A stretch of DNA of 64,000 nucleotides from a virus, in the IMG/VR virus record IMGVR_UViG_3300027396_000022, positions 1 to 64,000 of that record. One strand, written 5' to 3'. The notes under the pieces are model-generated. The model ran no database searches. It worked only from the letters and a program-made list of their open reading frames with translations, and was not told where the DNA came from. The position numbers were made by a program, and so were the translations under genes. Shown here piece by piece: positions 23,155-41,971 of the stretch (positions are counted from its first letter, which is position 1; each line of letters begins with the position of its first letter).

Positions 23155-23177
23155 TTCATCTTTCCATAGATCTTTGC

Positions 23178-23207
23178 TAGCCTTCCCTTACGGGGAGGCT
23201 ATTTTAT
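23178..23207 (+). terminator. Intrinsic terminator
   Basis: tagccttccc-ttac-ggggaggcta then ttttatt. Confidence 0.7.
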
Positions 23208-23208
23208 T

Positions 23209-24068: not shown

Positions 24069-24322
24069 ACATCGATTATCTATGGAACCAGGATAATACT
24101 GTGCATGCCATTAATTGCGAGCTTAACGGCATGGCTCTAGACGTTGGCATATTATGCCTTATTTCTTGCCGGGAAGAGACGCTTAGAATAAGCAACGAAA
24201 ATCATTCAATGCTGGTTGAAGTGCCTAAGGAATTTCGCTCTAACAGCGAAAGAGTGAAGGTGTTCAACGCATTGTTAAACGTTCTTGATCATGAGCAAAT
24301 ACAGCTTCCTTCTGCAAACTAA
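24065..24322 (+). CDS. Hypothetical protein
   Basis: Overlapping operon ORF. Confidence 0.55.
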   Translation: MNIDYLWNQDNTVHAINCELNGMALDVGILCLISCREETLRISNENHSMLVEVPKEFRSNSERVKVFNALLNVLDHEQIQLPSAN

Positions 24323-24827
24323 AGCTGAAGATTATTGTGAGCTTCTTCCCGAAATTCGACTCAAGAAATACGGTGGTTGGCTTGTGGCCGAAGCCATTGA
24401 ACAGGAAGAAATTAGTAAACTGCAAAGCCAAGCTACTATTAAAGCTGTGCAACTGGCTAAGCGTATTGCCACTGCAAAGGACATCCCATTAGACGAAGCT
24501 TTCGGTTTACTTCAAGGCGGTGGCGGCTCTATTACTGAGGCTGAGCTTCTTTCCGAATACACGGAAGAAACCCTCAGTATGATTACCAGCGGCTCTTCAG
24601 TGGAAAGCACTAACGCTCGTATGGTTACTGCCTTTATTCGCTCTCGCGGTCAAGGCTTAATTGACGGGGAATGGCAAGACCTTTCTGATTGGGAATTGGA
24701 TGATACCAAAAATCTGCCTCGCAAAGCCATTGCCAAAGTGGTTGAATTTATTGCCGAAGAACAAAATGCTGAGACGCAGGAGGCAGTGGCCGCAAAAAAA
24801 GCAACGAAGAGGAATTCTCCTCAGTAG
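24291..24827 (+). CDS. Tail assembly chaperone (gpG-like)
   Basis: Two ORFs before the TMP; slippery A-AAA-AAA at 24794-24800. Confidence 0.75.
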   Translation: MSKYSFLLQTKAEDYCELLPEIRLKKYGGWLVAEAIEQEEISKLQSQATIKAVQLAKRIATAKDIPLDEAFGLLQGGGGSITEAELLSEYTEETLSMITSGSSVESTNARMVTAFIRSRGQGLIDGEWQDLSDWELDDTKNLPRKAIAKVVEFIAEEQNAETQEAVAAKKATKRNSPQ

Positions 24828-25267
24828 CAGAAATGCTGGAAGCGCGAGCGCGTAACCAGTTAAAGGGACTGACAGATTGGAATGAAATTTATTTCCGACT
24901 TTCTGCGTCGGATTTTCATGATAGACGATGGCATGCTGATCAATTTGGTCGGCAGCCATTGTCTGACATTAAGCGTGCATTGAAATATTTAGACAAACAC
25001 GACATTGCAAAATACAATGTGCAGAGCGTTGCTATTGCAAAGCTTGGCACTATGGCCGCTGGCATGATGGTAGGACGCAAGTCTAAAATTAAGCCGGAAG
25101 ACTTTCTGCCCTTTGACACTAAAGCCATCAAGAAAGATACTGGCGTTACTGATGCCAGCTTGATTGTTCTTCAACGTTTAATGAAGACAAGAAAAATGGA
25201 CGGCAGGGTGATTGCATTGCTCGCCGATGATTTAAAAGCTTTTTCTGGGCGTAATCAAGAGCAATGA
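24794..25267 (+). CDS. Tail assembly chaperone gpT-like (-1 frame)
   Basis: -1 frame open from the slippery site (KKSNEEEFSSVAEMLEAR...). Confidence 0.7.
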   Translation, partial: KKSNEEEFSSVAEMLEARARNQLKGLTDWNEIYFRLSASDFHDRRWHADQFGRQPLSDIKRALKYLDKHDIAKYNVQSVAIAKLGTMAAGMMVGRKSKIKPEDFLPFDTKAIKKDTGVTDASLIVLQRLMKTRKMDGRVIALLADDLKAFSGRNQEQ

Positions 25268-25301
25268 TTATTGAATGAAGGGAATGTGATTAGAAAGCAA
25301 G

Positions 25302-28300
25302 ATGGCAGCTCAAGACGCCGAATTGAAGCTTAAGGTAAGTCTTGACCTGGCATTTTTCAGGCAGCAATTAGCAGGGCTTGGACAAGCTGCTGCTGGCACT
25401 CCATTGCCAGTGCAAATTAGATTTGATAGGCGTAGTGTGCAAAACGAGCTTAATGCTCTTGGCGCAAATATTAGACGCAGAAATTATACGCTTAATGTTA
25501 ACACTAATTTAAAGGCTGAAATTGAGAATGCGTCTAAATTGGCTAAAGCTCTGAATGAGCTAGGAAGATCCAGAGGCACCGCTCAGCAAGGGATCAATCA
25601 ACAGCTTGGGCTTGGTCAATTGTTAAAAGGCCCACAATCTGGGGGTATTGGCAGTAAAGATGTAGAAAGGCTTTATCGTGCAGCGGCTAGGGCTGGCATC
25701 CTTGAATACAGCAAAGAAGTAGCGAGAACAAAAGCTTCTGCGGTGGCAGCACTAGAAGAGGTTGGCAGCGATAGCGTAAAAGGTCTTCTTAATGGCCTTA
25801 AGAGCGAAGACGAAAAGTTGAGAGCAGCAGCCGAATATCTTGGAGAGTCTTTAATTAAGACGGTAAAGAATGTTCTTGGCATTGCATCGCCTTCTCGTGA
25901 ATTTAAGAAGATTGGCCAAAATGTAGGCGAAGGTTTCCAGCAGGGCATGATGTCCTCGATGGATAAAGCCTTCGATGCAGTAGAAGGGCTAATGCGGGCA
26001 CGCATGAAAGTGCTCGATACTATTGCTCGCGGCATGTTCCGCATGGCAGGCATTGACCCTGCTGCTATCAGGGCCGAAGCTGCTCAACGCCGCGCATTGC
26101 CTGGCGTTAATTTCCCTGCGACAGTGCCGCCTCGCAATGTTTCAATTGGTCCGTCTGGAACAGGTAGAGCATTGCCGCCTGGAGCCATTCCTTCTGCATT
26201 GCCTGGCACTGCATTTGGTGCGCAACGTTATTTACCTACTGCATTAAGTGACGAGCTGAAAACAATTTTACGTGGAGCCGCATTTGCTTTTGTTGACTCT
26301 CTTAAGCAGCAAGTAAGAAGCACTCGCATTGGCCTTGGAGCAACACAACAGCCTTTACTTGGGGCCAGTCGTATTGCTGGCTTACTTCCCGCTGGCGTTG
26401 GTCGTGCTCCCAGCGTTTATTCAACAGGTGCAGTTGGCGGCGAAACCCGCGCAGAAATGATGGCGCGTCGCGAACGTGAAGCCCGCATGCGCTCGGATTT
26501 ACGTGGCATGGATGTAATCGGAGGTGGGGCTGGTCGCACTCCTTCTCCTTACAGCTATGCGTATCGCGGGGCGCGTCCCACTAGCGCCATTGTTCCCTAT
26601 GCAACTGGAGGGGCAATTGTACCTCAGCCGTCGATGGCGGGAGGCGGTGCGCAGCCTCCTGCCGGCGGCGGTGGTGGACGATTTGGTGGCTTTGGTGGCA
26701 TGATTCCAGGCGCTGGTGATTTTGGTCGCGCCATTGGAGGAGTGAATCTACCTGGCACTGGAACAATTAGAGAGCTTGGACAGGAGTTTGGTTTTGCCGC
26801 TAAGCAAGTTGTGTTGTTTGGCCAGGCGTATAAATTACTTGCATTCATTCAAAATCTTCCAGCGCAAGTGGGTGCAGCAGTTGGACAATTACAAAGTTTT
26901 AGGAATACATTAAATGCAGTCACTCCTTCCACTGAAGAGGCTCGGGCGTCTAATGAGCTTTTGCTCGGACTCATGGAGAAATATAACGTGCCTTTGCAAT
27001 CAGCACGTGATGGCTTTACTAAGCTATACGCTTCCATGGCTCCCGCTGGTTTCAGTGGAAACGAAATCAGAGACTTATTCACCGGCATTACAAAAGCTGC
27101 GGCCACGTTTGGCATGAGCGCAGATAAAGTTGATCGCGTTAACTATGCCTTTGCTCAGATGGCTAGTAAGGGGCAAGTGATGAGCGAAGAACTTAAAGGT
27201 CAGTTGGGCGATGTTCTGCCTGGTGCAATGGCTTTGTTTGCTGAAGCAGCAGGATTTAAAGGGCCTAAGGCCATTCAAGACTTTTCCGCTGCCTTGGAAG
27301 ATGGCGCCTATAAAGGAGAGGCAATGGTTGCATTGCTGAAAAATGTAACTGTTGTAATGAATAAAGAGTTTGGTCCTGGCGCTGAAGGCGCGGCGCGAAC
27401 TTTCCAGGGCGTAATGAACCGCATGCAAAACTCAATGGCTCTTTTCTATGAGAGCTTTGAACCTGTTGCAGTGGGATTCTTGAATAGCGTTGTTGCCCCG
27501 ATGACGGACGGCATCAAACAGCTTACCGATGGACTTAATGCCTTTTTTACTGGTACAGCAGCAAAAACAGCAGGAGGATTTGCTATTGCTCAAGAGCTGG
27601 AGCGGCTGCGTCCGGCATTTGATGGCATTGGACAAAACGTGTCTACTTTTGTTGTTCAATTGGGAGAACTTGCAAGAGTTGCTCTTGATGTTGGCAAGGT
27701 ATTCTTGCAAATTGCTGGCAATCCAATTGTTGGTTATCTTGCAAAGCTTTATGCGATTGCTCTTCCCATCAATATTGCGCTTGGCGTGATGCGTGGATTG
27801 TGGGCTGCTAATGCATTGCAACTGTTAATTTTCAATGCAAGAGTTGCTTCTGGTACTTCGACTTTATCAGCGTTCAGGGGGATGATGGCTGCAACAGGCG
27901 CTACAGCGCAAACTACTGCAGCTTCCATCCGCACTGCTGGTATCACCTTGCGCACTTTCTTCGCGACAACTGGCGTTGGCTTGGTTGTTGTTGGTATCAG
28001 TATGCTCATTGAGAAATTCCTGACAATGAACCAGGCACTGGCTGATACCAAAGCAAAGGCGATGGGTGCGGTGCAGGCTATTCGCTCAATGTCACAAACG
28101 GAAGCTCGCGCAGCCGAACAGCAGGCGCAGTCGGCCTATCAAACAATTGGAGCGATTGCAGGGCGTGGTGGTACTCAGCAACCAGGCGGAGATCGTCTTG
28201 TTCCCGTGAGCGAAAGAGAACTTAAGCAACTTCAGGGACTTGGCGCCATTCGCTCGCAACAGACCCCAGGTGGCCCGATCTACGTGAAGAGAAGCGAGGT

Positions 28301-29918
28301 AATGGCTTTGGCTCCTCAAGCGCAGCGACTTCAAGCAGAGGCGGCCTTTAGGCAGCGGCAAATTAAAGCAGAAGAACAGTTGGCGCAAACCCCTGCTGTA
28401 CTTGGTGCAATTCCACCTAGCGAAGGAGAAGGAAAGAAAAAGAAAGGGAAAGAACTTGATGAATATAATAGAAGTCAGCTCGATTTTATTAAGCAGCGTT
28501 TTGATAAAGAAAAACAAGTATTAGATCAGCAATTGCAAGCCAATTTGGTTTCAAAAACTTCTTACGATATTAAACTTGCTGAATTGACACTTGAAACTGA
28601 AAGAGCTGAGTTACAGGAAAGATTCCGATTGGAATCAGAGAAAATCCAAAAGGATAATTTAAGTGCCGCCGATAAAGCTTTAGCGATTAAAGATCAAGAA
28701 GTGAAACTCGCCAATGGCTTGGCTATTGCCGAAAAACAGCGTGATATTGCGGTAAAGGGCGCCAAATTAGAACTGCGCCAGCCCTTCATCGAATCGCTGC
28801 GCAGCGAAAATATGGAAATTGACAAGCAAAATGCATTGATTGAAAGATTGAAAAAGGGATATAGCGATTTAACACCTGAACAAGAAGCATCATTTATCAT
28901 TGAAGAAAAAGTTGCAAGATTAAAGGCAGATGAACAAAAACTGATTCAAACAGATATCGATAATTTAAAACAGCAAATCCAATTACGCATTGAAAACGCA
29001 AAGCTTTTAGAAAAAGAGCAAGGTTTGCAGTCGGCGCGACAAGGCTTAAACCTGATAGGAGCTGGTATGCAAGCGGGCTTCGCAGGAAGCGCGGCTAATG
29101 TTTTTGAAAGGACAATGGAACAATATGGAGATAGAAATTATGCCGCCCAATTGGCTGAAATTGAGACGGCAGCGATGAAACTTCGTAGTGTATTTGAGGG
29201 ATTGCAGGGCGCCATTCAAAGCATTAGCGGAGCTTTTGCCAATGTTTTGACAGAGGGTGTGGCGGGAATGATTGCAGGCACTGCCACTGCAAAAGAAGTA
29301 TTTGCCAACTTCTTGCAAAGCGTTGCGCAAGCACTGTCTCAAGCAGCAGCGCAAATGATTGCCACTTACATTGCTATTGGTGTTGCAAAAATGTTTGCAG
29401 GAATGGGAGGAGGCTCAAACGCTGACATGTCAAAAACGGGCATCAGCGAAGGAACTCTTGCTCCCATGCGTCAGTATTCAATGGAGGGTCCCTTGACTGG
29501 CATGACTGGCATTGCGAATGGCGGATTCCTCTCTGGCGGTTTCCAAGCATTCGCCAACGGCGGCATGGTTGCTGGTCCCACTCTTGGACTCGTTGGCGAA
29601 GGCGGCGAAAGCGAATTTGTCATCCCATCTTCCAAGATGGAAGGTGCAATGAAGCGTTACAATGCAGGCGCACGAGGGGCTGGTGTGATTCCCGCTGGAA
29701 GGGATGTATCCTCCATGGAAACTGGTGGAATAATGGTTACAAGCCCAATCGACGTGAGATACACTGTAGAGCGTATCAATAGCATTGATTACGTCACTGC
29801 CGATCAATTCCAGCAAGGCATGTCTCGCGCAGTGCAGCAAGGCGCTTTACAGGGTGAACAGCGCACACTCCGCAAGCTTCGTAATTCACAAACCACTCGT
29901 TCTCGTGTTGGGATTTAA
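25302..29918 (+). CDS. Tape measure protein
   Basis: 1538 aa, Ala/Gly/Gln helical; LGIASPSR, QMASKGQVMSEEL, FANGG.V.GPTLGLVGEGG.E. Confidence 0.93.
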   Translation: MAAQDAELKLKVSLDLAFFRQQLAGLGQAAAGTPLPVQIRFDRRSVQNELNALGANIRRRNYTLNVNTNLKAEIENASKLAKALNELGRSRGTAQQGINQQLGLGQLLKGPQSGGIGSKDVERLYRAAARAGILEYSKEVARTKASAVAALEEVGSDSVKGLLNGLKSEDEKLRAAAEYLGESLIKTVKNVLGIASPSREFKKIGQNVGEGFQQGMMSSMDKAFDAVEGLMRARMKVLDTIARGMFRMAGIDPAAIRAEAAQRRALPGVNFPATVPPRNVSIGPSGTGRALPPGAIPSALPGTAFGAQRYLPTALSDELKTILRGAAFAFVDSLKQQVRSTRIGLGATQQPLLGASRIAGLLPAGVGRAPSVYSTGAVGGETRAEMMARREREARMRSDLRGMDVIGGGAGRTPSPYSYAYRGARPTSAIVPYATGGAIVPQPSMAGGGAQPPAGGGGGRFGGFGGMIPGAGDFGRAIGGVNLPGTGTIRELGQEFGFAAKQVVLFGQAYKLLAFIQNLPAQVGAAVGQLQSFRNTLNAVTPSTEEARASNELLLGLMEKYNVPLQSARDGFTKLYASMAPAGFSGNEIRDLFTGITKAAATFGMSADKVDRVNYAFAQMASKGQVMSEELKGQLGDVLPGAMALFAEAAGFKGPKAIQDFSAALEDGAYKGEAMVALLKNVTVVMNKEFGPGAEGAARTFQGVMNRMQNSMALFYESFEPVAVGFLNSVVAPMTDGIKQLTDGLNAFFTGTAAKTAGGFAIAQELERLRPAFDGIGQNVSTFVVQLGELARVALDVGKVFLQIAGNPIVGYLAKLYAIALPINIALGVMRGLWAANALQLLIFNARVASGTSTLSAFRGMMAATGATAQTTAASIRTAGITLRTFFATTGVGLVVVGISMLIEKFLTMNQALADTKAKAMGAVQAIRSMSQTEARAAEQQAQSAYQTIGAIAGRGGTQQPGGDRLVPVSERELKQLQGLGAIRSQQTPGGPIYVKRSEVMALAPQAQRLQAEAAFRQRQIKAEEQLAQTPAVLGAIPPSEGEGKKKKGKELDEYNRSQLDFIKQRFDKEKQVLDQQLQANLVSKTSYDIKLAELTLETERAELQERFRLESEKIQKDNLSAADKALAIKDQEVKLANGLAIAEKQRDIAVKGAKLELRQPFIESLRSENMEIDKQNALIERLKKGYSDLTPEQEASFIIEEKVARLKADEQKLIQTDIDNLKQQIQLRIENAKLLEKEQGLQSARQGLNLIGAGMQAGFAGSAANVFERTMEQYGDRNYAAQLAEIETAAMKLRSVFEGLQGAIQSISGAFANVLTEGVAGMIAGTATAKEVFANFLQSVAQALSQAAAQMIATYIAIGVAKMFAGMGGGSNADMSKTGISEGTLAPMRQYSMEGPLTGMTGIANGGFLSGGFQAFANGGMVAGPTLGLVGEGGESEFVIPSSKMEGAMKRYNAGARGAGVIPAGRDVSSMETGGIMVTSPIDVRYTVERINSIDYVTADQFQQGMSRAVQQGALQGEQRTLRKLRNSQTTRSRVGI

Positions 29919-29921
29919 CAA

Positions 29922-30452
29922 ATGACTGCTCGCGACTACCCATTCTTCAGTGATCGTTTAGCTCTCGCTCAATATGTCACTTTTTACGAAGTGGCCAAAA
30001 ATGGCTCTTTAAATGGAGTTTATAGAGGGCAAAATTTCTTTATTAACGAGCAAGTAGATTACGATAATGGCAATGGAGGGCAAGCTAAATACAACTTTGT
30101 ACCTTTTGCTTTTACTGGCGTTACTGTTTCTAGGAACGGTGATAACGAAAGCACATCCTTAATTTTTCCTAACAATGCAGTGGTCCGAGTCTGGACAACT
30201 GCTTTACTAGGAGCAGGAAGAAGATGGGTGGCACAAGTGGACACGTTAATTGTTGACCCTGATAATAGTGCAAAAAACAATCGCCTTTCTTCATACACAG
30301 GACAAGTAATTAGCGCGGGATGGGCTGGGCCACGATTGGAGATTCAACTCGGTTCAGTATTGGATGCTGTTGGAGCTGATGTGCCTCGCAGAAGAATTAC
30401 AGAAGGAGCTTTTGGACCATTGCCAACCACTGCTTCCATCCGTATGGCATGA
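29922..30452 (+). CDS. Minor tail protein (gpL-like)
   Basis: Follows TMP; F.PFAF.G, L.SVLDAVG..VP.R. Confidence 0.6.
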   Translation: MTARDYPFFSDRLALAQYVTFYEVAKNGSLNGVYRGQNFFINEQVDYDNGNGGQAKYNFVPFAFTGVTVSRNGDNESTSLIFPNNAVVRVWTTALLGAGRRWVAQVDTLIVDPDNSAKNNRLSSYTGQVISAGWAGPRLEIQLGSVLDAVGADVPRRRITEGAFGPLPTTASIRMA

Positions 30453-30838
30453 CAATCTCGCCTTCATCCCTAATTGGGCGCCCATATAAGCTCGGTGCAG
30501 ATGGAAGCGGAACTGAAATTGATTGCATTCATTTGGTATATGCCACTTGGCGTTATCTTGGTATTCCTTCGCCAGCGTTTGAAAATCAATGGTATGTGGC
30601 ATCAAATAGGTATATAGCGAAAGCAATTTTGCGATGGGGCGCTAGGATACAAGCACCCTACCAGGACGGGGATTTATTGCTGCTACCAGACAAAACACAC
30701 GTTTTTGCCGTGGTGTGGCAATCAGGCATCCTTTACATTAATAGAGACTTAGGAGCTGTTTCTTGGTGTCCATTGAGCGCAATTCCTCCATGTCACGTTT
30801 TTCGATGCCGATCCTGCCTTACGAAAGGCAGCTCATAG
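30449..30838 (+). CDS. NlpC/P60-like tail assembly protein
   Basis: LIG.PY.LG.DG....IDCI.LV. Confidence 0.7.
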   Translation: MTISPSSLIGRPYKLGADGSGTEIDCIHLVYATWRYLGIPSPAFENQWYVASNRYIAKAILRWGARIQAPYQDGDLLLLPDKTHVFAVVWQSGILYINRDLGAVSWCPLSAIPPCHVFRCRSCLTKGSS

Positions 30839-33800
30839 AATTACTTGGCTGTAGCCCTGAGGAATATTGCGCTTTTAAAGAAGAAGTGATGCTGCGCTCC
30901 AAAGAGCGTCCAGCAGCGTACGAAGGCATCCCTGATATTGTCAATGGTGAAACGGCGTGGATTATTGCATCAATTATTATTTCCATTGGCAGCACTGCAG
31001 CGAGTTATTTTCTTGCTCCAAAACCTCCCGAAGCCGGTGGAACAAAACAACGAAATAGACAGCTAGATAGCATTGTCGGGCGTGATAGATTTGCTCCCAC
31101 TTTTGGTTTTCAAGCGGGACAAGATATTTCTCGCTACGGCGAATCCATCCCCATTGTTTTTACAAAGCATTTTTATCAAGGATTCCTGCGTCAATACATT
31201 GGCGGGGTAATGATTAGCCCCAAGCTTGTATGGTCTCGTTCTTATAGCTGGGGACGTTTTCAAAGCATCGATATGATGTTCTTAGCAGGGCAAGGCCAAA
31301 TGGGGCGTGGCCCTTATTCCACTGCAGCAGAAATTGCAGAAGATCGAGCTGGTGTTTATATTGGGCAGTCTCCCATTGATTCCCTTCTTCCTTCTGATTA
31401 TCGATGGTTTTATTATCAGGGAGCTGCTGCAAATAGTAATGGCATTGGCTATGCAAATGATAGTAGGCTTGTTGCGACGCACCATCGCCATGGAGATTGG
31501 GGGGATGATGGTCCTCCTAATTCTGCGTTCTATGCCCCGTCTTTTGCTGGTGGTGACGCAGCCGGCTTTAGTCACTGTTTTTCTCCTTCTACGCAGCTTC
31601 AATTTGGCGTATATGGAGCTATTCCTAATGGCACACCTTTACGCTTAAATTGGCAAATTATAAGCAACATTGATGACTACACAGACGAAACAAGAGATAG
31701 CAATAGGGCTAAGCGTGTGATGATTTGTGGCAATACCAGCATGAATGGCATTGGCAGGAATTATCCGAGGCAAATTGGAATTGTATTGCATAATAATTAC
31801 GCCACTTCATTCACTGGAGACAACGGGGAATATAGAACTATTCAAAAAGGAGATACTATTACTCTTATATATAATGCGCAGCGGCTTCAAAGACAGTTTT
31901 ACGCAGAAAGTTATATCGATGAAGACAACATAGATACGCGGGGCCTTGATAACACTGAAATAATCACAACATCGCAGTCTGAGCTTGAAAAATACGACGA
32001 GGTGTTGCAGCGTGGCACTTATTTCTTCGTGGGCAATTGTAAATTTATTGTCGACTCAAGAACACCAGCAGATGAAATTTATAATAAGCGCACCAGGAAG
32101 GCATTTTCTATCAAATTAAAATGTGTTGAAGTTTATCCAGATAAACTTGGCTTTGGCCGCATTGGCATTTGCAATCCATCATATGTCAATAGCACCACTC
32201 CACTTCCGCGCAGCAGGGCTGCAGTCGGTACAGATATTGGGGCTCCATGGTTTCCCTTGTGTCAGGCAGAGGTGGCTTCGTTCCAGAACACTCGCAAGTG
32301 TCAATACACGGAAATAGGGATTAAGTCTAATGTTTGGTTGCGTTTCAATAATTTATGTAACTTTACAAACCTTCCAGAACCGGAGGCTCTTGATAACTTT
32401 GATAGCAAAAATATTATACTGTCTGCTGGTACATTACAAACATATACCACAAGGGCTTCGTTTTTCTTTATTTACGTAAAGCCCGCCAATGCTTCTTCTT
32501 CTCAAGACTGGCATTTGATTACTGACATCCCATTTTGCGTCACAGGTTCATCTCCTCAGGATAAATTTAACTTTATTCGCATTGCCCATAATTTTGATCA
32601 GTTTGAGTATCAATTGCGCCCAGTATCATCTTCTGAAATTGTTCATATTATTGGGCGAGATCAATATTGTTTCAGGCTTAACGCCGAGGCGTCATTCTTG
32701 CCTCAAGAAACAAAGCAGACGCCTTATGGTCCCTTCACTGTTTATACCAAGGGAACAAAGGATCAAATAAGCAGCTTTGCTACTAATGATGAATTGATTA
32801 ATACAAATATTGATAAGGATGCTCAGTATTATACGGATACCGAAATTGGCGTAAAATTTGTTCGCGCAACATTGCTTAGCAACGGAAGTACGGCATCTCC
32901 AAACCAATTAAGCAACGCAATTAGCAAGGCTATTAATAAGGACGCCGATCCAAATGCTTCTGAACAGGGATTTCCCGATATCCCATGGGGAGGCATTGGC
33001 GAGGGCAGTATTTACACTTTCACAAATCCAGAAGCAAACTTGTTTAGTGTTGCCCTTTCTAAGAGTGGCCTCTCCAAGGAAATGTCATTAAAAATGGACA
33101 TTCAAGTGTATAAAGGAACTGCGTCAGGTGACAGAGATTTGTTTTGGCGCATTGTTGATATTCGGCCAATTAATGTCACATCTGATAATAATTTTAAGTG
33201 GAGCAAGGGAGACGTATTTACGATTACAAAATCACTAATCAATCCTATTGATTCTGTTGTTTTTCATTTTGAAGTTACTCGTGGCATCTCTGGAAAGCTG
33301 CCTAATGCAACCGTGGCACCTGGGCAGTACGAACGTATTTTTGAAGGTAATTCTGCCATCGCTGAAGTTTCGCACTATGGAGATTTAATTAGCAGGAGTT
33401 GCGACAATGGCCCGGAGCATGAAGTGGTATATGTAAATGAAAGCCTTACGCCAACAAATATTCCCACTTATGAAGGATGCGCAATGGCCGGTCTTCGCAT
33501 TCGCAGCGGACGCAACATGAGCCAGTTGGAGCAGCTTCATTTATATCAAAAGAATGGCATTCAAGTGGAGCTTGTAAGGAGCACTGGAAAGCCTTACGCG
33601 GTTGGTCCGTCGAATATATTTACGGATCTTGTGTATTATTTGCTGACCAACAAGCAAGCTGGCATGGGAGGATTAGTTGGTGATTCAGTGGTTGATGTAG
33701 AGAGTTTTCAAGAAACCGCAAAATTTCTTGAAAGTAATTATTTGTATTACGACGATGTAATTACGGAGCCTAAAAATCTTAGGGATTTTATTGCTTCCAT

Positions 33801-34665
33801 CGTCCCATCATTACTATGCACATTGTCCACTCGCAATGGGAAGATTGCTATTACTCCGGCATTACCCGCTCAGCGCACTGGATCTATTGAACCATTGGTA
33901 AGCGTGCCAATTCGTGCAATGTTTACTGATGGCAATATTATTGAAGACTCCTTTGAGCTGCAGCACATTTCTGCTGACGACAGAAAACCATTCAAGGCGT
34001 CCATTCGTTATAGGCAAGAAAAGACGAATCAATTCCCGGAAGAAAAAAATATTGTCGTCTACTACAACGACCAAGCTGATGCTCCTATTGAGCAATTTGA
34101 TTTCACTCACATTACTTCACGCATCCATGCAGAGCAGGCAGCCAAGTATTTGTTGAGTTCACGCAGAAATATTACGCATACTATTAGCTTCAAGGCTGTG
34201 CCATATGGCATTGCATTGGCTCCAGGCGATTACATTCGCGTTGTAACGCAAAGTAATATTTTTGATCCCGATGCAAATAATGGCGTCATCTTAGACGATC
34301 AAGATGACAATGCAAATGATCCGCGCAAAGGTAACTTTGCTGGTGGCACCATTGTTTCTTTTGAGCCAATTCCAGATGGAAACCACCCGGTGTTTTTATG
34401 GGACAGGACAAATCAAGATGTGCAGGATACAACTATTTTGGTAAAGGATGGAATGGCTTTTAATCAGCGCAATGCCATGTTCTGTCTTCGCAAAGACATT
34501 AATAGGGAAGAAGTGTACACGGTTGAATCTCTTCAGTTAGATGAAGATGGAATGGTAATGATTACTGCCAGTTATTTTCCTCTTTATGGCGGCACAGATT
34601 ACAGTAAAATTGCATATGAGGTGGTACGCGGTGGACAAATTGGTTTCACCGTCGAAGCAAACTAA
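30790..34665 (+). CDS. Tail tip / host specificity protein (gpJ-like)
   Basis: ~1290 aa; YGE.IPIVF N-terminus, LAPGDYI.V C-terminal motif. Confidence 0.8.
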   Translation: MSRFSMPILPYERQLIELLGCSPEEYCAFKEEVMLRSKERPAAYEGIPDIVNGETAWIIASIIISIGSTAASYFLAPKPPEAGGTKQRNRQLDSIVGRDRFAPTFGFQAGQDISRYGESIPIVFTKHFYQGFLRQYIGGVMISPKLVWSRSYSWGRFQSIDMMFLAGQGQMGRGPYSTAAEIAEDRAGVYIGQSPIDSLLPSDYRWFYYQGAAANSNGIGYANDSRLVATHHRHGDWGDDGPPNSAFYAPSFAGGDAAGFSHCFSPSTQLQFGVYGAIPNGTPLRLNWQIISNIDDYTDETRDSNRAKRVMICGNTSMNGIGRNYPRQIGIVLHNNYATSFTGDNGEYRTIQKGDTITLIYNAQRLQRQFYAESYIDEDNIDTRGLDNTEIITTSQSELEKYDEVLQRGTYFFVGNCKFIVDSRTPADEIYNKRTRKAFSIKLKCVEVYPDKLGFGRIGICNPSYVNSTTPLPRSRAAVGTDIGAPWFPLCQAEVASFQNTRKCQYTEIGIKSNVWLRFNNLCNFTNLPEPEALDNFDSKNIILSAGTLQTYTTRASFFFIYVKPANASSSQDWHLITDIPFCVTGSSPQDKFNFIRIAHNFDQFEYQLRPVSSSEIVHIIGRDQYCFRLNAEASFLPQETKQTPYGPFTVYTKGTKDQISSFATNDELINTNIDKDAQYYTDTEIGVKFVRATLLSNGSTASPNQLSNAISKAINKDADPNASEQGFPDIPWGGIGEGSIYTFTNPEANLFSVALSKSGLSKEMSLKMDIQVYKGTASGDRDLFWRIVDIRPINVTSDNNFKWSKGDVFTITKSLINPIDSVVFHFEVTRGISGKLPNATVAPGQYERIFEGNSAIAEVSHYGDLISRSCDNGPEHEVVYVNESLTPTNIPTYEGCAMAGLRIRSGRNMSQLEQLHLYQKNGIQVELVRSTGKPYAVGPSNIFTDLVYYLLTNKQAGMGGLVGDSVVDVESFQETAKFLESNYLYYDDVITEPKNLRDFIASIVPSLLCTLSTRNGKIAITPALPAQRTGSIEPLVSVPIRAMFTDGNIIEDSFELQHISADDRKPFKASIRYRQEKTNQFPEEKNIVVYYNDQADAPIEQFDFTHITSRIHAEQAAKYLLSSRRNITHTISFKAVPYGIALAPGDYIRVVTQSNIFDPDANNGVILDDQDDNANDPRKGNFAGGTIVSFEPIPDGNHPVFLWDRTNQDVQDTTILVKDGMAFNQRNAMFCLRKDINREEVYTVESLQLDEDGMVMITASYFPLYGGTDYSKIAYEVVRGGQIGFTVEAN

Positions 34666-34667
34666 TC

Positions 34668-35048
34668 ATGAGTCTTCCAGACATCACGCCCACTTCTCGA
34701 TCACTAAATCTTGGTCCATGGCCGCTTAAAACTTTCCGTCTCAATAATGGAGCTGAAATTCGGCGTCTTTATGGCAATAGGCGAAATAATTTAGAGCTTG
34801 AACTTACCTACGAAAACTTACCAGACAGCGTGGCAAATCAATTTAGAGAGAAATATGATGATACAAAGGGAGGGTTTGATACATTTCGACTTCCAGGCAA
34901 TACATTTGCTGGGTGGACAAGTGACTCTGGCACCTATATTGGACCCACTGCCAACGTTTGGAGATATAAAGAGCCTCCCACTATTACCAATGTAAAAAGA
35001 GGTGTTAGCACTGTGCAGGTGGTCTTAATTAGCGTGTTTGTTCAATAA
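34668..35048 (+). CDS. Minor/distal tail protein
   Basis: P.ITPTSR, GAE.R..YG, WRY..PP. Confidence 0.6.
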   Translation: MSLPDITPTSRSLNLGPWPLKTFRLNNGAEIRRLYGNRRNNLELELTYENLPDSVANQFREKYDDTKGGFDTFRLPGNTFAGWTSDSGTYIGPTANVWRYKEPPTITNVKRGVSTVQVVLISVFVQ

Positions 35049-35090
35049 GACACGTTGGAACAATTAGACTAATTAGTAGGTGACTGTGCT

Positions 35091-35531
35091 ATGACTTATT
35101 TCACTGGACGAAATGGGAAAATGGTGGTCGGTGGTTCTACCATCGCCAAGGTTACATCATGGTCCATGAACGCAGACTTGGACCTTTTGGAAACCACTGC
35201 ATTAAATGATGCCAATAAAAGTTTTGTAGCCAATCTTCCTACTTATACTGGTAGTGCCACAATTTTATATTACAAAGATGCTGCTGGCGCCTTTGAAACT
35301 GATGGCATTTTTGGCAGATTATTAAGGCGAAACGCATCACTAGCAACTGCTACTTTGCGGCTACAAATAGCGGACGGTAACACTGTGCGAGAAGTAGTTT
35401 TAGAAGCATTTATTACATCATTAGCCATTGGAAGTTCTGTGGGAGAAATCGTATCAGCAGATATTAATTTCCAGGCAACGGGAGACCTTGCCGATCCTAC
35501 GGCTCAAGCACCTGCTGGTGTTGCATTGTAA
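35091..35531 (+). CDS. Tail-tube-like protein
   Basis: G..G.....V.SWS......ETT.L.D; GEIVSA.I.FQ.TG. Confidence 0.6.
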   Translation: MTYFTGRNGKMVVGGSTIAKVTSWSMNADLDLLETTALNDANKSFVANLPTYTGSATILYYKDAAGAFETDGIFGRLLRRNASLATATLRLQIADGNTVREVVLEAFITSLAIGSSVGEIVSADINFQATGDLADPTAQAPAGVAL

Positions 35532-35533
35532 TC

Positions 35534-36454
35534 ATGAGTGTTTATCTTGGACATCGAGGGCGAATTGAACTGCAGCGCACTGGGCAGTCAAAGATTGTCA
35601 CCAATGTATTGGCTAATCATGTCAATGCCGATTTAGATCGGCTTCAATTGGATTTTGGTCAAGAGAACGGAGTGGATTTATTATGCCCTTTTAATAATGG
35701 CGATGAGATAGAATTTCGCGGGCCAATAAACGCCGCAGGAAATCGCACATTATTATCTTTTGTATCGGCTAGTGGCTGGTCAGATGGCAATCAGCATGGC
35801 TCTGGAAAATGGTTTGTTAATGTTGATGACCTAGGTGGAATACGCCTTTATTCAAGTTTTGAGGCAAGTCTGGCTGGAGATACTGGTACGTCTATTCCAT
35901 TGGAAACACTTGCTAATGATATTGACAATGTAGAACTAGAGCTTGCAAATAATATCCCGCGCATACTAGGCAGGGCTATTTCTTGGGAATTAAATACAAC
36001 CAGGGAGAATGTTGATACGACTGTATTAATGGATCAATTCAGGAGTCAATGGTCGAGTTTGATGTCTGGAAGTGGGCGAATTAATGCTCAATGGAATTAC
36101 AGAGAAGAAGTTGGAGAAACCGGAATTGATATTTCCAATTATTTTCTACAGCTAGCTTTGCGTACTGAAATTGGGGCTCAGTTTAAGGCTCAATTGTTCC
36201 TTAAAACTCCTGGAGCTGGAGGCTTAAATCCAGACGGCACTGACGACGCGCTTTGGTATGACATTTCTGGAGTGGTTACGCAAGCGGGGGTGCAAGTGTC
36301 GCCAGATGCATTGATAGAAGTTGGAATAGATTTTATTACAACGGGACCAATTAAATTACTTGCTCGTACTATTCCATTGGATGTTATCTTGCAGGAAAAT
36401 GGAGATGATCTTTTGTTAGATGGTTTAGTTGCTGGCCGCCTCTTGCTAGAGTGA
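35534..36454 (+). CDS. Structural tail protein with tube-like C-terminal half
   Basis: SWELNT.RE.VDTT.L.D...SGSG; I.FITTG. Confidence 0.6.
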   Translation: MSVYLGHRGRIELQRTGQSKIVTNVLANHVNADLDRLQLDFGQENGVDLLCPFNNGDEIEFRGPINAAGNRTLLSFVSASGWSDGNQHGSGKWFVNVDDLGGIRLYSSFEASLAGDTGTSIPLETLANDIDNVELELANNIPRILGRAISWELNTTRENVDTTVLMDQFRSQWSSLMSGSGRINAQWNYREEVGETGIDISNYFLQLALRTEIGAQFKAQLFLKTPGAGGLNPDGTDDALWYDISGVVTQAGVQVSPDALIEVGIDFITTGPIKLLARTIPLDVILQENGDDLLLDGLVAGRLLLE

Positions 36455-36482
36455 GGCATAGCGTAAAAAGCAGCGCTGAATT

Positions 36483-38807
36483 ATGGCCGACCTTAAAATT
36501 TCTCAACTTACAGAACTTGCTGCCGCTGATTTGGCAAGCGATGATGTGTTGGCTGTTGTTAATCTTGGCACTGGAGAAACGCGAAAAATCAAGGCCACTT
36601 CATTAATTAATAGAAGCGTAATTTTTCTTTCTGGCAGTACCATTTCTGGAAGTGCTGTTAATTTTAGTAGCGTTACTATTAGTGGAACATCTTTAGCAAG
36701 CGGCACAGTTTCGTCTGGTAATATTGCGTTTAATTCAATTACTGCTCAATTATTGGCAGACAATAGCGTCAATGTAGTAGACAGCGCTCTGCCAGCGTCT
36801 GGTGAATTTTTAGGGCAATTTGCTACTACAACTGGAGATGATTTTATTTATGCATGGGATGGATCATCTTGGTCTCCTATTAAAGCGGCTGGATCTATTG
36901 CTTCTGTTAGTGGTGTAGCATCTGGCATTGTAAATATTGCTTCTATTACAACTAGCGGAAATGCCGTCATTAGTGGTTATTTATCTGCCACTACTTCCGG
37001 CTCTCAATTCCTAGCTGGGCCGACTGGAGCTGGAGGATCAGTATATTATCGCCCTATTGAATCTTCCGATCTTCCCATTGCTACCACGGCCCAAGCGGGA
37101 GCTGTCATTATCAATGGAAATGGCCTGACGCTAAGTGGCAACACTGTTGCCATTGACAATTTTATTTCCACTGCTTCTGGCTTTTTAGGCGTTGCAGTTA
37201 ATGAATATGGCTTGATTACTCATACCAGGGCTGTTGTTGGAGCGGATCTCCCCATTGCTCAATCTGGAATTACTGGAGCGGTTCAGCCCGGTACTGGCCT
37301 TGATGTGGATGGTGTGGGAACTATTGGCCATTCCAACTCCATTGCATCTGGAGTGGTAAACGGCATTACATTTGATACTGAAGGGCACATTACAAATGCC
37401 ATCCCATTAATTGCAGCAGATATTCCAAATCTTGATGCCAGCAAGATAACGACTGGCACCCTTGACAATGCGCGCATAGCTGCTCAAAGTATTGTGGGCG
37501 CCAAACTGGCCGATAGGTCTACGGCGCAATTCGGTGATAATCAACCCACTGCAGAATATATTGGCCAGCTTTATTTTAATAGCCTTTCACGAGATATTTA
37601 TATTTGGGACGGCAACGTTTGGCAGCCGATTGGTATTTCAGTTGGTGAAATTGTATTCGCCGGTACATACGATGCAGGTACCAATTTAGTTGCTTCTGTG
37701 ACCAGCGATGGTTCTGCTGTTGGCTTAGTAGTTGGACAAGCACTGCCTGCTGCCGCCACTGCAAATAATAGATATTATCTTGTTGTTTCGGAAGCAGGCA
37801 CTGGCACTGGTAATGCACCAAATGTAGCGCTTGCACCTCCAGATATTATTCTTTCCAATGGAAGCGCATGGACTGAAATTGACGTTAGTCAAACTCTTAC
37901 TAACGTAACAGCAAACCAAGTTTCCTATACGCCCGCTGGAAACATTGCTGCAACAAATGTACAAGCGGCATTGGATGAATTAGATAATGAAAAGCTTGCC
38001 GTAAGCGGCGGGACAGTTACGGGAGTAATTACCCTTAGCAATACAAGTAGTGGCATTGCTTTTGAAGGCACTACTGATAATGCTTTTGAGACTTTACTCA
38101 ATGCTGTAGATCCAACCGCCGACAATACAATATTATTACCAAACCTTAGTGGCACATTAATTACCACCGGAGATACGGCCACAATTAGTGGTGTCATGAT
38201 TGCTAGTGGCACTATTACTAACGCCAAAATCAGTCCAACTGCGGCTATTGACGGAGCAAAAATTCAAGCAGCAAGCACGACGACGAGTGGCGTTGTTGTG
38301 TTAGTGGATTCAACTAGCAGCACAAGCACGTCTACTGCCGCCACTCCGAATTCAGTTAAGACTGCTTATGATCTAGCAAATGCAGCGCTACCATCATCTG
38401 GTGGCACAATGACAGGAGCAATTACATTTGCCTCTGGACAAACTATTAGCGGATATGCACAACTAGCGAGTGCGCAAAGCTTTACTGCGGCTCAGCGGGG
38501 TTCAGTTGTTAGCGTTGCTGGAAGCGGAACTGTAACGCTTAATTTAGCATTGGGCAATAATTTTGCTGCCACATTGAGTGGAACCACTACTTATGCATTG
38601 CCGTCTGGAATGACTGCGGGCCAAAGCGGGGCTTTAGTGCTAACGCAAGATGGCACAGGAAGTCGCCTGGTTTCCTTCTCTGGATGGAAATTCCCTGGCG
38701 GGACAGCTCCAACTGCCACTACAACGGCATCGGGAGTTGACGTGGTTGTTTATTACGTCGAAAGTGCTTCTAGAATTAGCGCTCGCATGGTTAATGATGT
38801 GAAGTAG
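36483..38807 (+). CDS. Long tail fibre / fibre-base protein
   Basis: MADLKISQLT start, Ser/Thr/Gly/Ala repeats, AATPNSVKTAYDLA, QDGTGSR C-terminal domain. Confidence 0.85.
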   Translation: MADLKISQLTELAAADLASDDVLAVVNLGTGETRKIKATSLINRSVIFLSGSTISGSAVNFSSVTISGTSLASGTVSSGNIAFNSITAQLLADNSVNVVDSALPASGEFLGQFATTTGDDFIYAWDGSSWSPIKAAGSIASVSGVASGIVNIASITTSGNAVISGYLSATTSGSQFLAGPTGAGGSVYYRPIESSDLPIATTAQAGAVIINGNGLTLSGNTVAIDNFISTASGFLGVAVNEYGLITHTRAVVGADLPIAQSGITGAVQPGTGLDVDGVGTIGHSNSIASGVVNGITFDTEGHITNAIPLIAADIPNLDASKITTGTLDNARIAAQSIVGAKLADRSTAQFGDNQPTAEYIGQLYFNSLSRDIYIWDGNVWQPIGISVGEIVFAGTYDAGTNLVASVTSDGSAVGLVVGQALPAAATANNRYYLVVSEAGTGTGNAPNVALAPPDIILSNGSAWTEIDVSQTLTNVTANQVSYTPAGNIAATNVQAALDELDNEKLAVSGGTVTGVITLSNTSSGIAFEGTTDNAFETLLNAVDPTADNTILLPNLSGTLITTGDTATISGVMIASGTITNAKISPTAAIDGAKIQAASTTTSGVVVLVDSTSSTSTSTAATPNSVKTAYDLANAALPSSGGTMTGAITFASGQTISGYAQLASAQSFTAAQRGSVVSVAGSGTVTLNLALGNNFAATLSGTTTYALPSGMTAGQSGALVLTQDGTGSRLVSFSGWKFPGGTAPTATTTASGVDVVVYYVESASRISARMVNDVK

Positions 38808-38817
38808 GAGAAAACTA

Positions 38818-38961
38818 ATGATTCCAGGAAATATTAATTCTTTACTGCTTGCTGCCGATGCAGCGCCTACTGGTTATAGTATCTCACGTTCACTGCGGTT
38901 CAACAGTAGTGACAGTGACTTGTGGCAAAACCTTTGTAATACACAGGAGGCAGCAAAATGA
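38818..38961 (+). pseudogene. Truncated tail-fibre N-terminal stub (47 aa)
   Basis: MIPGNINSLLLAADAAPTGYSISRSLRFNSSDS-DLWQNLCNTQEAAK*; RBS ggag; N-terminus homologous to next gene. Confidence 0.7.
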
Positions 38962-40487
38962 CTATCCCAGGAAGCGCAATATCTCTTCTTCTTGCAGGCG
39001 CAGCTACCGACCCTAACCTTGTCGAGATCTACGCCTGGGGCGGTGGCGGTGGGAGCGGCTATGCAGGTGGATCAGGTGCTGGCGGAGGCGGTGGTGCGGT
39101 TTACGCAACTGCTGTAATAAGCCCATCTCAGGTTTACAACGTCATTGTCGGTGGCGGCGGTTTAACAATGGCACCCAATGCAGGCACGGGCGGCACCGTG
39201 TCCGGCGGCGGTGGATTAGCTGGCACAAGTGGCTATGGCGGCCAAGGCGGCGGATATTCAGGGATTTTTATTGGCGCTGCAGCAACCCAAAATGCCGCGC
39301 TTGTTATTGCCGGTGGTGGTGGTGGTGGCGCTTATGAAGGTGCTGCCGGTGGCGCTGGTGGTGGATCTACAGGTGCCGCAGGAGGCAGCGGAGCTGCTGC
39401 TGGTGGCGGAGGCGGAACGCAAAGTGCAGGTGGCACCTCTTCGCATTCGGGTGTTGGCACTGCGCTGAAAGGAGGCGATTGCGGAACATCGGGAGACGGT
39501 GGAGGCGGCGGCGGTGGAGGCGGCGGTTATTGGGGCGGCGGTGCTGGCTCTGGAGCAAACCCTGGCTCAGCCGGTGGTGGCGGTTCTGGGTATATCAACA
39601 CGCTGCAAACACTAACCGGCACGCTTTACGCAGGTTCTGGTGCTACTCCAGGAAATAGCGGCAGTTCTTTTAGAGGAAGCTATGGCAATGGCGGGGCCAG
39701 CGGCGCGAACAACGGCTTGCAAGGTGTTGTTATTATTCGCTATCAAGGCACACCGCGCTATACAGGCGGGACGATCACTCAATCTGGCGGGTACACAACA
39801 CATACATTTACAGCAAATGGCTATCTAAATCTGAATACGGTTCTTTTGATGCCATTCAAGACATCGGCAACTGCAGACCATTCCCCCATTCCAAAGACAG
39901 TCACCATGAACGGTACTGTCACGATTTCATCGACTCAGTCAAAGTATTATGGTGCTAGCGCCTATTTCTCCAATGGAAACTGGCTGTCTGTCGCCGCTTC
40001 AAACGATTTTCTTTTTGCAGCTAATGATTTTACGATGGAATTGTGGATTTACCCAACCACAAACGCTTATGATATCTTTGGTGCTCTGGGGGGAAAACTT
40101 GCGCTTGGCTTGATTATTGGCAATTCATATAACTTTTCCAGGGCCGATGGAACAATCACTTTTGCCGACGACGGCTCGGGCGGCATTGTTACTAATTACC
40201 CGAATCAAAACTCAGTGAGCGGGCCAATGGTGGTCAACCAATGGCAGCACCTTGCGTTTGTCCGCAGTGGCACGTCATTTTTGATATTTAGAGACGGTCA
40301 GCTTTTAAGCACCACAACTGTCAGCTCTTCCAATAATAACGTCGGCAGCAGTTCTCTCGCCATGGGAATTGGGCGTTTAACTGGATCAACCAATAGGCCA
40401 GTCACTGGATACATCCAAGATCTTGCTGTTTATAAGGGTTATGCAAAATACACCGGAACGTTTACGCCTCCAGGTCCCCTTACATAA
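38958..40487 (+). CDS. Receptor-binding/tail fibre protein, glycine-rich + LamG/ConA-like domain
   Basis: GGGGG repeats; FTMELWIYP...NQWQHLAFVRSG...GYIQD..VYKG.AKYT. Confidence 0.85.
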   Translation: MTIPGSAISLLLAGAATDPNLVEIYAWGGGGGSGYAGGSGAGGGGGAVYATAVISPSQVYNVIVGGGGLTMAPNAGTGGTVSGGGGLAGTSGYGGQGGGYSGIFIGAAATQNAALVIAGGGGGGAYEGAAGGAGGGSTGAAGGSGAAAGGGGGTQSAGGTSSHSGVGTALKGGDCGTSGDGGGGGGGGGGYWGGGAGSGANPGSAGGGGSGYINTLQTLTGTLYAGSGATPGNSGSSFRGSYGNGGASGANNGLQGVVIIRYQGTPRYTGGTITQSGGYTTHTFTANGYLNLNTVLLMPFKTSATADHSPIPKTVTMNGTVTISSTQSKYYGASAYFSNGNWLSVAASNDFLFAANDFTMELWIYPTTNAYDIFGALGGKLALGLIIGNSYNFSRADGTITFADDGSGGIVTNYPNQNSVSGPMVVNQWQHLAFVRSGTSFLIFRDGQLLSTTTVSSSNNNVGSSSLAMGIGRLTGSTNRPVTGYIQDLAVYKGYAKYTGTFTPPGPLT

Positions 40488-40500
40488 GGCATGTCAATTC

Positions 40501-40524
40501 TTCAATTACGCCCGCGCCCGCTGA
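40501..40524 (+). pseudogene. Orphan C-terminal remnant of another fibre gene (FNYARAR*)
   Basis: ttc aat tac gcc cgc gcc cgc tga; resembles a fibre C-terminus that I recall from related phages. Confidence 0.45.
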
Positions 40525-40542
40525 CCCCACTAGAGAACAAGG

Positions 40543-41397
40543 TTAAAGCGTCGGCATTTCATAGTCCTGCGTTGTATTGCAGTAGTGCTTCCAAATAACC
40601 TCAGCCGTATTGCCGGCCCACTTTGCGACTTGCGCCACGGGTATTCCTGCCTCAATCCACCGGCTGATTGCTGTGTGGCGCAGATCGTAAGGCCGGTAAC
40701 GGTGACTCGTTAATCCAGCAGTGTGCAATTCCTTGGCTCTGTCATAGAAAAAACTCTGGAACGCATACCTGTTGTACGGGAAAATATATTCATTGTCCTT
40801 GTCTACGGAATCAAGAATTTCTAAACACTTTTCGTTTAAAGGTACAACACGTTTCTTGTTTGTTTTTGTAGAAAACTTCAGGCCATGCGTAAGGGTGTAA
40901 TTGCAATGGATCAATAACTTCCCATCCTTTAGGTCAGTCCACTTGGCAGCGCGAACTTCACCTGTACGCATTGCTGTCTGGAGCATAAATTCAGAGTAAG
41001 CCGACCAACGTGCGCCACATTTTGTTTGGCGAGCTTCTAGAGCAGTGAGTAAAAGCGCTACTTCGCTGCGTGGAATTACGATGATTTCTTCATCCATCTG
41101 GGGCGCCTTAGGCATCCGAAAACTGGCAATCGGATTTTTAGGCAGGTAGGCAATGTCTTCGCTGCTGGCCCAGCGATAAAGGGCCTTGACATACATAGCC
41201 ACCCTGCGGCTGGACTTGACGGGCTGCTGGCTCAAAACCCATGTAAGAACCTGCCTGCCTTGCTCCAGTTCTGTAACCGGACAGCGACCGATCCACTTGT
41301 CGACTTGCCTGTAGTCCGCCATGAGACTGGTGGGACACAAGACAGCAGAACGCTCTGCGTGGAACTCGGCCCATGCGCTTTGGAGGGTGTGTGGCAC
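40543..41397 (-). CDS. Tyrosine recombinase/integrase
   Basis: TAMRTGE (R), KT.K.R.VPL, YDLRHT (Y in place of H in HxxR), AGN.......HY. Confidence 0.9.
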   Translation of the reverse strand: MPHTLQSAWAEFHAERSAVLCPTSLMADYRQVDKWIGRCPVTELEQGRQVLTWVLSQQPVKSSRRVAMYVKALYRWASSEDIAYLPKNPIASFRMPKAPQMDEEIIVIPRSEVALLLTALEARQTKCGARWSAYSEFMLQTAMRTGEVRAAKWTDLKDGKLLIHCNYTLTHGLKFSTKTNKKRVVPLNEKCLEILDSVDKDNEYIFPYNRYAFQSFFYDRAKELHTAGLTSHRYRPYDLRHTAISRWIEAGIPVAQVAKWAGNTAEVIWKHYCNTTQDYEMPTL

Positions 41398-41461
41398 AGT
41401 AGTCGCCTACAGGGCCGAGTAAAGTACCGCTATACGTGCCTCCTGTCTAGGTCCAGTACAG

Positions 41462-41971
41462 ATGTTCCTGTTAGACGGCAAGCCACTGAGCCCAGATGTG
41501 GCGTTCACCCACGACGGTGTTCAGTACCCCGCCAACTGGCTCCGGCTTGCTACTCCCGAGCAGCGTGCAGCGATCGGCATCACCGAGGTGCCCGATCCCG
41601 CTCCAGTCGATCAGCGCTTCTACTGGGATACAGGCATCCCCAAGGACCACACCCAACTGGTCGAGCAGTGGACGCAGCAGACCCGCACCACCGCCAACAC
41701 CCTGCTGGCACCAACGGATTGGATCATCATCCGCGAGGCTGACAACGGCAAACCTGCTGATCCCGTGCTACGCACCTGGCGCGAGGAAATCCGCCTTGCA
41801 TCAGGCAGCAAGGTCTACGAAATCAAGCAGACAGCTGACACCGCTGCACTAGCTGCTTACATTACCGGCGCCGACTACCCAGCTTGGCCCAGTGATCCCT
41901 ACGCTCCTGCTCAGCCTGCTCCTACTGATGGGGTGGAGTTTTCTGGCAATGGCGTCACTAGCGGATTCTGA
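41462..41971 (+). CDS. Tail fibre assembly/chaperone-like protein
   Basis: YPANWLRL, LLAPTDW.I.R..D, WR..IR. Confidence 0.75.
   Translation: MFLLDGKPLSPDVAFTHDGVQYPANWLRLATPEQRAAIGITEVPDPAPVDQRFYWDTGIPKDHTQLVEQWTQQTRTTANTLLAPTDWIIIREADNGKPADPVLRTWREEIRLASGSKVYEIKQTADTAALAAYITGADYPAWPSDPYAPAQPAPTDGVEFSGNGVTSGF

Follow-up and report, generated by a model that had tools for sequence, protein, structure and literature searches.

The stretch of DNA analyzed here (hereafter the window) comprises the first 64 kb (64,000 nt) of the 78,772-nt virus record IMGVR_UViG_3300027396_000022. This report concerns a tail fiber locus at positions 38818-41971, in which the body of one fiber gene has been replaced by another, complete fiber gene. 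A first-pass annotation, made from the sequence alone, had listed five parts of this locus, all of which are present and in the listed order: (i) the stub of a fiber gene, (ii) a full fiber gene translationally coupled to it, (iii) the orphan tail of the replaced gene, (iv) an antisense tyrosine recombinase gene, and (v) a presumed fiber chaperone gene. It had also proposed that the recombinase swaps receptor-binding genes in the manner of an integron. Replacement of the fiber gene and recent spread of the new gene across phages are real; the integron-like recombinase model is not supported.

A foreign fiber gene between the ends of a resident one

The stub (38818..38961, + strand) is an open reading frame (ORF) of 47 aa with a ribosome-binding site. 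It is composed of the first 33 codons of a LamG/SPRY-type fiber gene and 14 foreign codons (...SRSLRFNSSDS plus 14 aa), and its TGA stop codon overlaps the ATG of a 509-aa ORF (ATGA). IMG/VR contains 101 exact matches to the 19-mer at the break, TTCAACAGTAGTGACAGTG, and in nearly all of them the frame continues as ...SDSAYLSRTPASAGNRKTWTW... into genes of 775-1080 aa. More than 100 relatives with ORFs of this size read through the stub break as ...RFNSSDSAYLSRTP..., and the break after SRSLRFNSSDS described in the first-pass annotation was borne out by the match of the stub to the start of this family. Its genes start with M.PGSANPLLL...RSLRFNSSDS and end with ...AESPFxYARAR*. Their layout consists of a conserved 5′ block (...RSLRFNSSDSAYLSRTP...), found in 107 distinct relatives, a highly variable, divergent body, and a conserved 3′ end, found in 56. 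The stub holds the first part of the ...RSLRFNSSDSAYL... block. Virion proteins of pelagiphages, cyanophage SS120-1, and Roseobacter and Methylophilales phages share 32-40% identity with one full-length member (L105); these cultured relatives are annotated as SPRY, lectin, or fiber proteins. The resident family is a LamG/SPRY-type virion fiber that is common in aquatic phages.

The other end of the replaced gene is found downstream of the new one. Here, a 3′ scar (FNYARAR*; 40500..40524, + strand) comprises the last seven codons and the stop codon of the replaced gene and carries the ...YARAR* end of the family. Judged by its match to the ends of 56 full-length relatives, it is the true 3′ end of the family and a real remnant, as had been supposed. 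It is followed by the post-stop motif CCCCACTAGAGAACAAG (40525..40541), which abuts the stop codon of the recombinase gene. This motif recurs in 24 loci whose left and right flanks vary, and related forms, (C)TAGWGAACAAG, often stand 3′ of family genes. In some relatives (L105, L111-L114, and L139), an optional ORF of about 44 aa (M.R.YSELT...) overlaps the fiber stop codon (ATGA) and lies between the fiber gene and the post-stop motif. The window contains at this place a 35-aa ORF (40491-40598), a chimeric remnant running into the 3′ end of the recombinase gene, which is on the other strand.

The gene between the two remnants (38958..40487, + strand) encodes an incoming fiber or adhesin protein of 509 aa with a glycine-rich N-terminal half, a C-terminal Laminin_G_3 domain (PF13385, E = 4.3e-16), and matches to PHROG tail and unknown-function families. 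The N-termini of stub and 509-aa protein are alike in 9 of 14 residues (E = 0.018, single comparison). Together with the ATGA overlap, this agrees with the earlier description of a coupled second fiber gene with a homologous N-terminus. After a gap of 55 nt follows the tyrosine recombinase gene (40543..41397, - strand), with a GTG start and a product of 284 aa without an arm-binding domain. Its catalytic domain was correctly recognized in the first-pass annotation: it scores 61.9 bits with PF00589 (Phage_integrase), compared with a curated cut-off of 27.1 bits. It is the only recombinase in the 78.8-kb record. Since the scar lies between the new fiber gene and this integrase, the replaced segment spans about 38919-40499 and excludes the integrase.

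A 1,644-nt cassette in three unrelated phages

The new gene is part of a mobile cassette of 1,644 nt (38899..40542, + strand) that is common to three phages, here called A, B, and C. The cassette is letter-for-letter identical in all three, and its flanks are unrelated. Depth and junction data were taken from Logan contigs of four river metagenome runs. In 4/4 runs, a single unitig of 1,643 nt, without single-nucleotide polymorphisms, covers exactly 38899-40541. Its depth per run (19.9, 43.9, 38.1, and 56) is about three times that of the phage A side (5.7-7.0, 13.4, 13.2, and 14.9) and about 2.5 times that of the integrase region (7.5, 17.8, 16.3, and 17.9). A second right-hand continuation after 40542, also detected in 4/4 runs, is that of phage C. 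In three of the four runs, two coexisting alleles of the integrase region were noted (13/192 positions differ; 41138-41329 and 40561-40573), next to a cassette without variants. Three runs also contain low-depth contigs that lack 171 nt of the glycine-rich repeats in the fiber gene (39332-39504) and may represent length variants or relatives.

Phages A and B are both contained in the record. Its terminal 127 nt are an exact repeat of window positions 38899-39025, and upstream of the repeat the two copies drop to about 65% identity. In the usual metaSPAdes settings, 127 is the largest word size. An exact terminal repeat of this length points to a stick-and-loop ("lollipop") path that re-enters a graph node: the record is a k=127 lollipop assembly joining phages A and B, i.e. 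a chimera. The stick (1..38898) is phage A, with its own portal, sugar-gene cluster, tape measure, and distal tail module; a 38.9-kb Logan contig on this side terminates at 38928. The loop is phage B (40543..64000 in the window), which continues to record position 78645 and, with the cassette, yields a circle of 39,747 nt (38899-78645) that closes through the cassette. The gene set of phage B is full and comprises lysis genes, dCTP deaminase, HNH, Sak annealing protein, terminase, portal, and MuF in addition to the recombinase. Portals and head genes differ between the two phages, the distal tail module alone is homologous (40-60% protein identity), and 100% identity begins at 38899. GC content is 0.44-0.48 in A and 0.52 in B. 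Phage A DNA would adjoin phage B DNA because the assembler took one path through the common cassette, and the "100% complete" label of the record describes a chimera of two phage genomes.

Phage C is represented by an 83-kb contig (97% complete) that is unrelated to A and B outside the cassette. At one end of the contig, a third, different stub precedes the first 127 nt of the cassette; at the other, the final 127 nt of the cassette stand before a holin-like gene and a lysozyme gene. No PF00589 hit, and hence no tyrosine recombinase, was found in this 97% complete contig. Phage C (L010/L027, ~95 and 4940) contains two fiber slots of the family in tandem, slot 1 with an intact family gene and slot 2 with stub and cassette; a homolog of the 169-aa ORF described below is located between them.

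More diverged copies were detected as well: (i) a 97% identical cassette behind a fourth stub, reading FNAGDS (L141); (ii) a 95% identical cassette with the same right scar and no integrase adjoining (L139); and (iii) a 76% identical homolog behind its own diverged stub of equal length, with the ATGA overlap (L140) and an integrase 4.4 kb away, beyond lysis genes. The stub-plus-gene layout in L140 indicates that the arrangement predates the recent spread, and it suggests, on sequence grounds, that stub ORF and overlap are kept; both are found in all five stub versions (n = 5). The 100% identical copies indicate that the transfers were recent, not ancient. An assembly artefact at the junction of stub and fiber gene is ruled out, since this junction occurs behind four different upstream sequences, both in contigs from several samples and in Logan contigs. 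Fusion of stub and fiber protein by a -1 frameshift was also considered and rejected by inspection: the AAA before the TGA in the window permits a slip of the lysine tRNA, whereas the CAA TGA of L140 does not. The first-pass annotation had rightly described a fiber gene whose body was replaced, with a 5′ stub and a 3′ tail left, and a replacement that is mobile between phages.

Breakpoints, a constrained 30-nt element, and neighboring genes

Identity among A, B, and C starts at 38899 and ends at 40542, with both edges on the 5′ element and the 3′ motif. The left edge lies inside an element of 30 nt (38899-38928) whose synonymous sites are kept in 107 distinct fiber genes. This was found in a codon-unbiased scan in which the amino acids FNSSDSAYLSRTP were fixed and the codons free (107 distinct sequences). 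Starting from F, the codons are TTC (95%), AAY (AAC/AAT, 66:34), AGT (94%), AGT (92%), GAC (99%), AGT (98%), GCC (97%), TAC (97%), TTG (99%), and TCC (82%). Eight of these ten codons are fixed at 92-99%, the exceptions being AAC/AAT and TCC. The conserved R, S, L, and R just upstream use 5-6 codons each (top codon 37-49%), and the top codons of R, T, and P just downstream reach 45%, 64%, and 53%. From this codon usage, a stretch of about 30 nt is constrained as nucleotides, and the left edge at a fixed site conserved at the nucleotide level had been correctly anticipated. The window itself carries a remnant of the element (38899..38924, + strand) as the left crossover zone, with the first 19 nt intact and then ACTTGT with 3 nt missing.

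No unusual fold (z = 0.12) and no Rfam family match were found for the 30-nt element, and the fold z-scores at the cassette boundaries (0.12, -1.16, and 0.36) give no inverted-repeat or hairpin signature. The inverted arms tcactg/cagtga, to which the first-pass annotation had drawn attention, are confined to the stub of phage A; B and C differ there, and the fold is not unusual (z = -1.16). Within the record, the element occurs once per phage genome and on the + strand only, the second copy being the assembly repeat. It is single-copy in 164 of 166 loci of relatives holding the element, and an inverted copy was found in none. With a single copy and no inverted one, the locus is not an invertible segment of the Gin/Cin type, as had already been stated.

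For relatives with the same upstream and different downstream sequence, divergence sets in between +19 and +98 from the first base of the element, mostly at about +87 (32 pairs, not independent). The conserved 5′ block of 85 nt ends near +87. Such breakpoints, scattered across a conserved anchor, are the pattern predicted by homologous recombination. At the 3′ coding end of the family, codon fixation is moderate. The 7-mer GTAGTGA, common to the 5′ element and the 3′ motif, was considered as a shared recombination signal and dismissed, as its occurrence is within chance (about 0.05, a rough estimate).

Two further genes are of note. Upstream of the stub lies a tail fiber gene of 774 aa (36483..38807, + strand; PF03406 Phage_fiber_2, E = 3.6e-12). 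Downstream of the integrase, a 169-aa ORF (41462..41971, + strand) possibly encodes a fiber assembly protein. The presumed chaperone gene of the first-pass annotation is present as an ORF, with a weak match for the function (phrog_4912 "tail fiber assembly", E = 1.8e-4); its homologs directly follow fiber genes in L139, L140, and L010. No Rfam family match was obtained in 38000-42600, and promoter-like and terminator-like sites are no commoner than in shuffled sequences. HNH endonuclease genes (window 44697-45008; L227 12234-12611) are found 2-4 kb downstream of the cassette in B and C, away from the terminase genes; a homing-type role for them would be speculation only.

How the cassette may have spread

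We favor, with a probability of about 65%, a resident fiber slot whose contents are exchanged: the cassette would have spread by recombination at its short conserved ends, with the recombinase outside the unit. Initially, an illegitimate or microhomology event may have replaced the body of a family gene, with ACTTGT common at the left joint. A foreign glycine-rich/LamG fiber gene of 509 aa would have entered with its own ribosome-binding site, and the 33-codon stub and the 7-codon scar would have remained. The stub probably acts as a translated leader coupling the new gene to the resident expression signals. The scar-to-scar unit 38899-40542 is then likely to have spread among unrelated, co-occurring phages through two crossovers, one in each of the conserved ends that were left. 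Recipients with an intact family gene would have offered 19-25 nt of homology at the left end and about 43 nt at the right. Sak-type annealing proteins work with short homologies. Possibly, the exchange is a short-homology recombination of the phage single-strand annealing protein kind; phage B encodes a Sak-type protein. The conserved flanks, the presence of the same module in unrelated backbones, and the spread breakpoints are all consistent with exchange by homologous recombination.

The integrase is most likely phage B's own S-LBS1-type integrase, predicted to serve phage B itself. Among cultured phages, Synechococcus phage S-LBS1 (MG271909) has the most similar integrase, with 65.5% identity over the full length. 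The authors of the S-LBS1 study found no lysogens and described such integrases as common in freshwater viromes (PMC6157547). S-LBS1 also comes from a freshwater cyanobacterial siphovirus setting, with an integrase of unproven function beside a fiber gene; orientation and neighboring genes are different, and its fiber, tried as a possible member of the RFNSSDS family, proved by comparison to be a non-member. A scan of bacterial genomes with the integrase, which reaches close relatives only, yielded one weak unrelated hit and no host junction, host, or attB site, and a sequence search of the PDB gave no homolog. By eye, Y and N appear to occupy the places of the two histidines that many tyrosine recombinases have (YDLRHT and WAGNT...KHY), and the same holds for the L140 homolog.

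Several observations weigh against exchange by recombination at the short ends. A left arm of 19-25 nt is very short for homologous recombination; despite this, at least three backgrounds and the FNAGDS-type stub of L141 join the cassette within it. The frozen synonymous sites of the 30-nt element at the joint are not accounted for by plain recombination, and the depth arithmetic did not settle the right flank of phage A. As regards the integrase, lysogeny has never been shown for the S-LBS1-type clade (PMC6157547), and no close homolog was found in 185,579 species genomes by a scan that reaches close relatives only. The integrase stop adjoins the fiber 3′ motif in many relatives that carry the integrase, down to 72-79% identity; in others the distance is 1-2.6 kb. 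We take the abutment to be conserved gene order in one phage lineage. Finally, it is possible that the recombinase acts in trans during co-infection.

The integron-like mechanism, by which the adjacent tyrosine recombinase would swap fiber genes and excise a 2.5-kb circle of fiber and recombinase genes between two copies of ACAGTAGT, appears highly improbable. As in an integron, a tyrosine recombinase stands beside a site where a promoterless gene sits behind resident expression signals. Its position next to the slot, the abutment in diverged relatives, the integrase beside a fiber gene in S-LBS1, and the unproven lysogeny of the clade speak for such a role, and a sequence close to the integrase start, ACAGTAG...CCTAC, is similar to the conserved 5′ element. 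However, the unit common to A, B, and C stops short of the recombinase, at 40542, and the 3′ scar of the old gene would lie inside the proposed circle. This mechanism would call for fixed breakpoints and a linked recombinase. Among relatives, however, the breakpoints scatter; the recombinase either lies outside the unit or is missing from two of the three carriers (phage C has none), and only three of about 30 family loci having at least 2.5 kb of downstream DNA contain this integrase. The repeat itself is at chance level, with two copies of ACAGTAGT in the window compared with 0.8 expected (16/100 shuffles reach two), as is the claimed association with TGTGGCA (16 occurrences compared with 14.6 expected). 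The second copy, over the GTG start of the integrase (41396..41403), is judged a chance match; it persists in near-identical integrase loci alone and, in part, in L115 (91%), and it is lost at 64-79% identity. The recombinase is not IntI-like (22.2 bits with the NCBIfam XerA/integron integrase model, cut-off 220 bits; 29-35 bits with XerC/D models, cut-off about 330), and there are no attC-type folded sites and no cassette array. Moreover, the whole integrase gene separates the right edge of the cassette from the integrase start, and the S-LBS1 fiber is outside the family. Joints diagnostic of excision (41403-38911 and 38910-41404) were not listed in the four river runs, whose contigs, not being raw reads, give no evidence of absence.

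Because the left edge falls inside the frozen element, a dedicated site-directed mechanism is retained as a minority reading. It would act on the 30-nt element and (C)TAGWGAACAAG through a recombinase or homing-type nuclease in trans. Candidates for such an enzyme could be the S-LBS1-type integrase and, in B and C, the products of the HNH genes close to the slot. We consider it unlikely. In its favor, eight of ten consecutive codons are fixed while neighboring conserved residues use 5-6 codons each, and both cassette edges fall exactly on the two motifs in three phages. Efficient ordinary recombination would need a longer stretch of homology than the left end offers; the GTAGTGA common to both motifs and the HNH genes 2-4 kb downstream in B and C would also fit. 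On the other hand, the breakpoints of relatives do not coincide at one nucleotide but range across all 85 nt of the block, codon fixation at the 3′ coding end is no more than moderate, the shared 7-mer is within chance, no enzyme is consistently linked to the slot, and the boundaries lack an inverted-repeat or hairpin signature. That the record is instead real as written, a cointegrate with phage B integrated into phage A at the cassette and the cassette duplicated, is very unlikely. The ratio of phage A to integrase-region depth is similar (about 0.8) across the four runs, but these may stem from one sampling campaign. A terminal repeat of exactly 127 nt is the usual sign of graph-node re-entry, the cassette has about three times and not twice the depth of A, a third phage carries it, and GC content differs between A and B.

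Recombination at the conserved ends has counterparts in known systems. Segments of T-even gp37/gp38 and of P2/lambdoid side tail fibers are reportedly exchanged by recombination between conserved motifs. Here, too, a variable receptor-binding part lies between conserved ends, breakpoints fall in conserved blocks, and the same module occurs in unrelated phage backbones. Host-recognition modules are also common to distantly related Alteromonas phages (PMC10579305). Unlike in these exchanges, the outer parts of the old gene enclose an entire foreign gene with its own start codon and persist as a translated stub and a scar; moreover, the copies show 100% identity, both anchors are very short, and one of them has frozen synonymous sites. 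With Mu Gin, P1 Cin, and the R64 Rci shufflon, the locus shares a recombination site at the constant/variable joint of an adhesin gene and, with Rci, a tyrosine recombinase next to the segments. In contrast to these systems, each genome contains the element only once, with no inverted copy and no alternative silent segments. A diversity-generating retroelement was also looked for, and nothing in the 78.8-kb record matched PF00078.

Host ranges presumably evolve through transfers of this kind, which are seldom observed with 100% identical copies and exact edges. The cassette is a nucleotide-precise and very recent case, with one receptor-binding gene in three unrelated phages from the same waters. 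It shows a route by which a foreign gene can be plugged into a resident fiber slot with a translated stub as leader, and it draws attention to a 30-nt stretch under nucleotide-level constraint, without explanation, in more than 100 phage contigs. It seems quite unlikely, at present, that this element and (C)TAGWGAACAAG are the dedicated crossover sites of an exchange system of many freshwater phages, operated by an enzyme in trans, perhaps the S-LBS1-type "integrases". If they were, such phages would possess a phage-borne, integron-like means of swapping host specificity.

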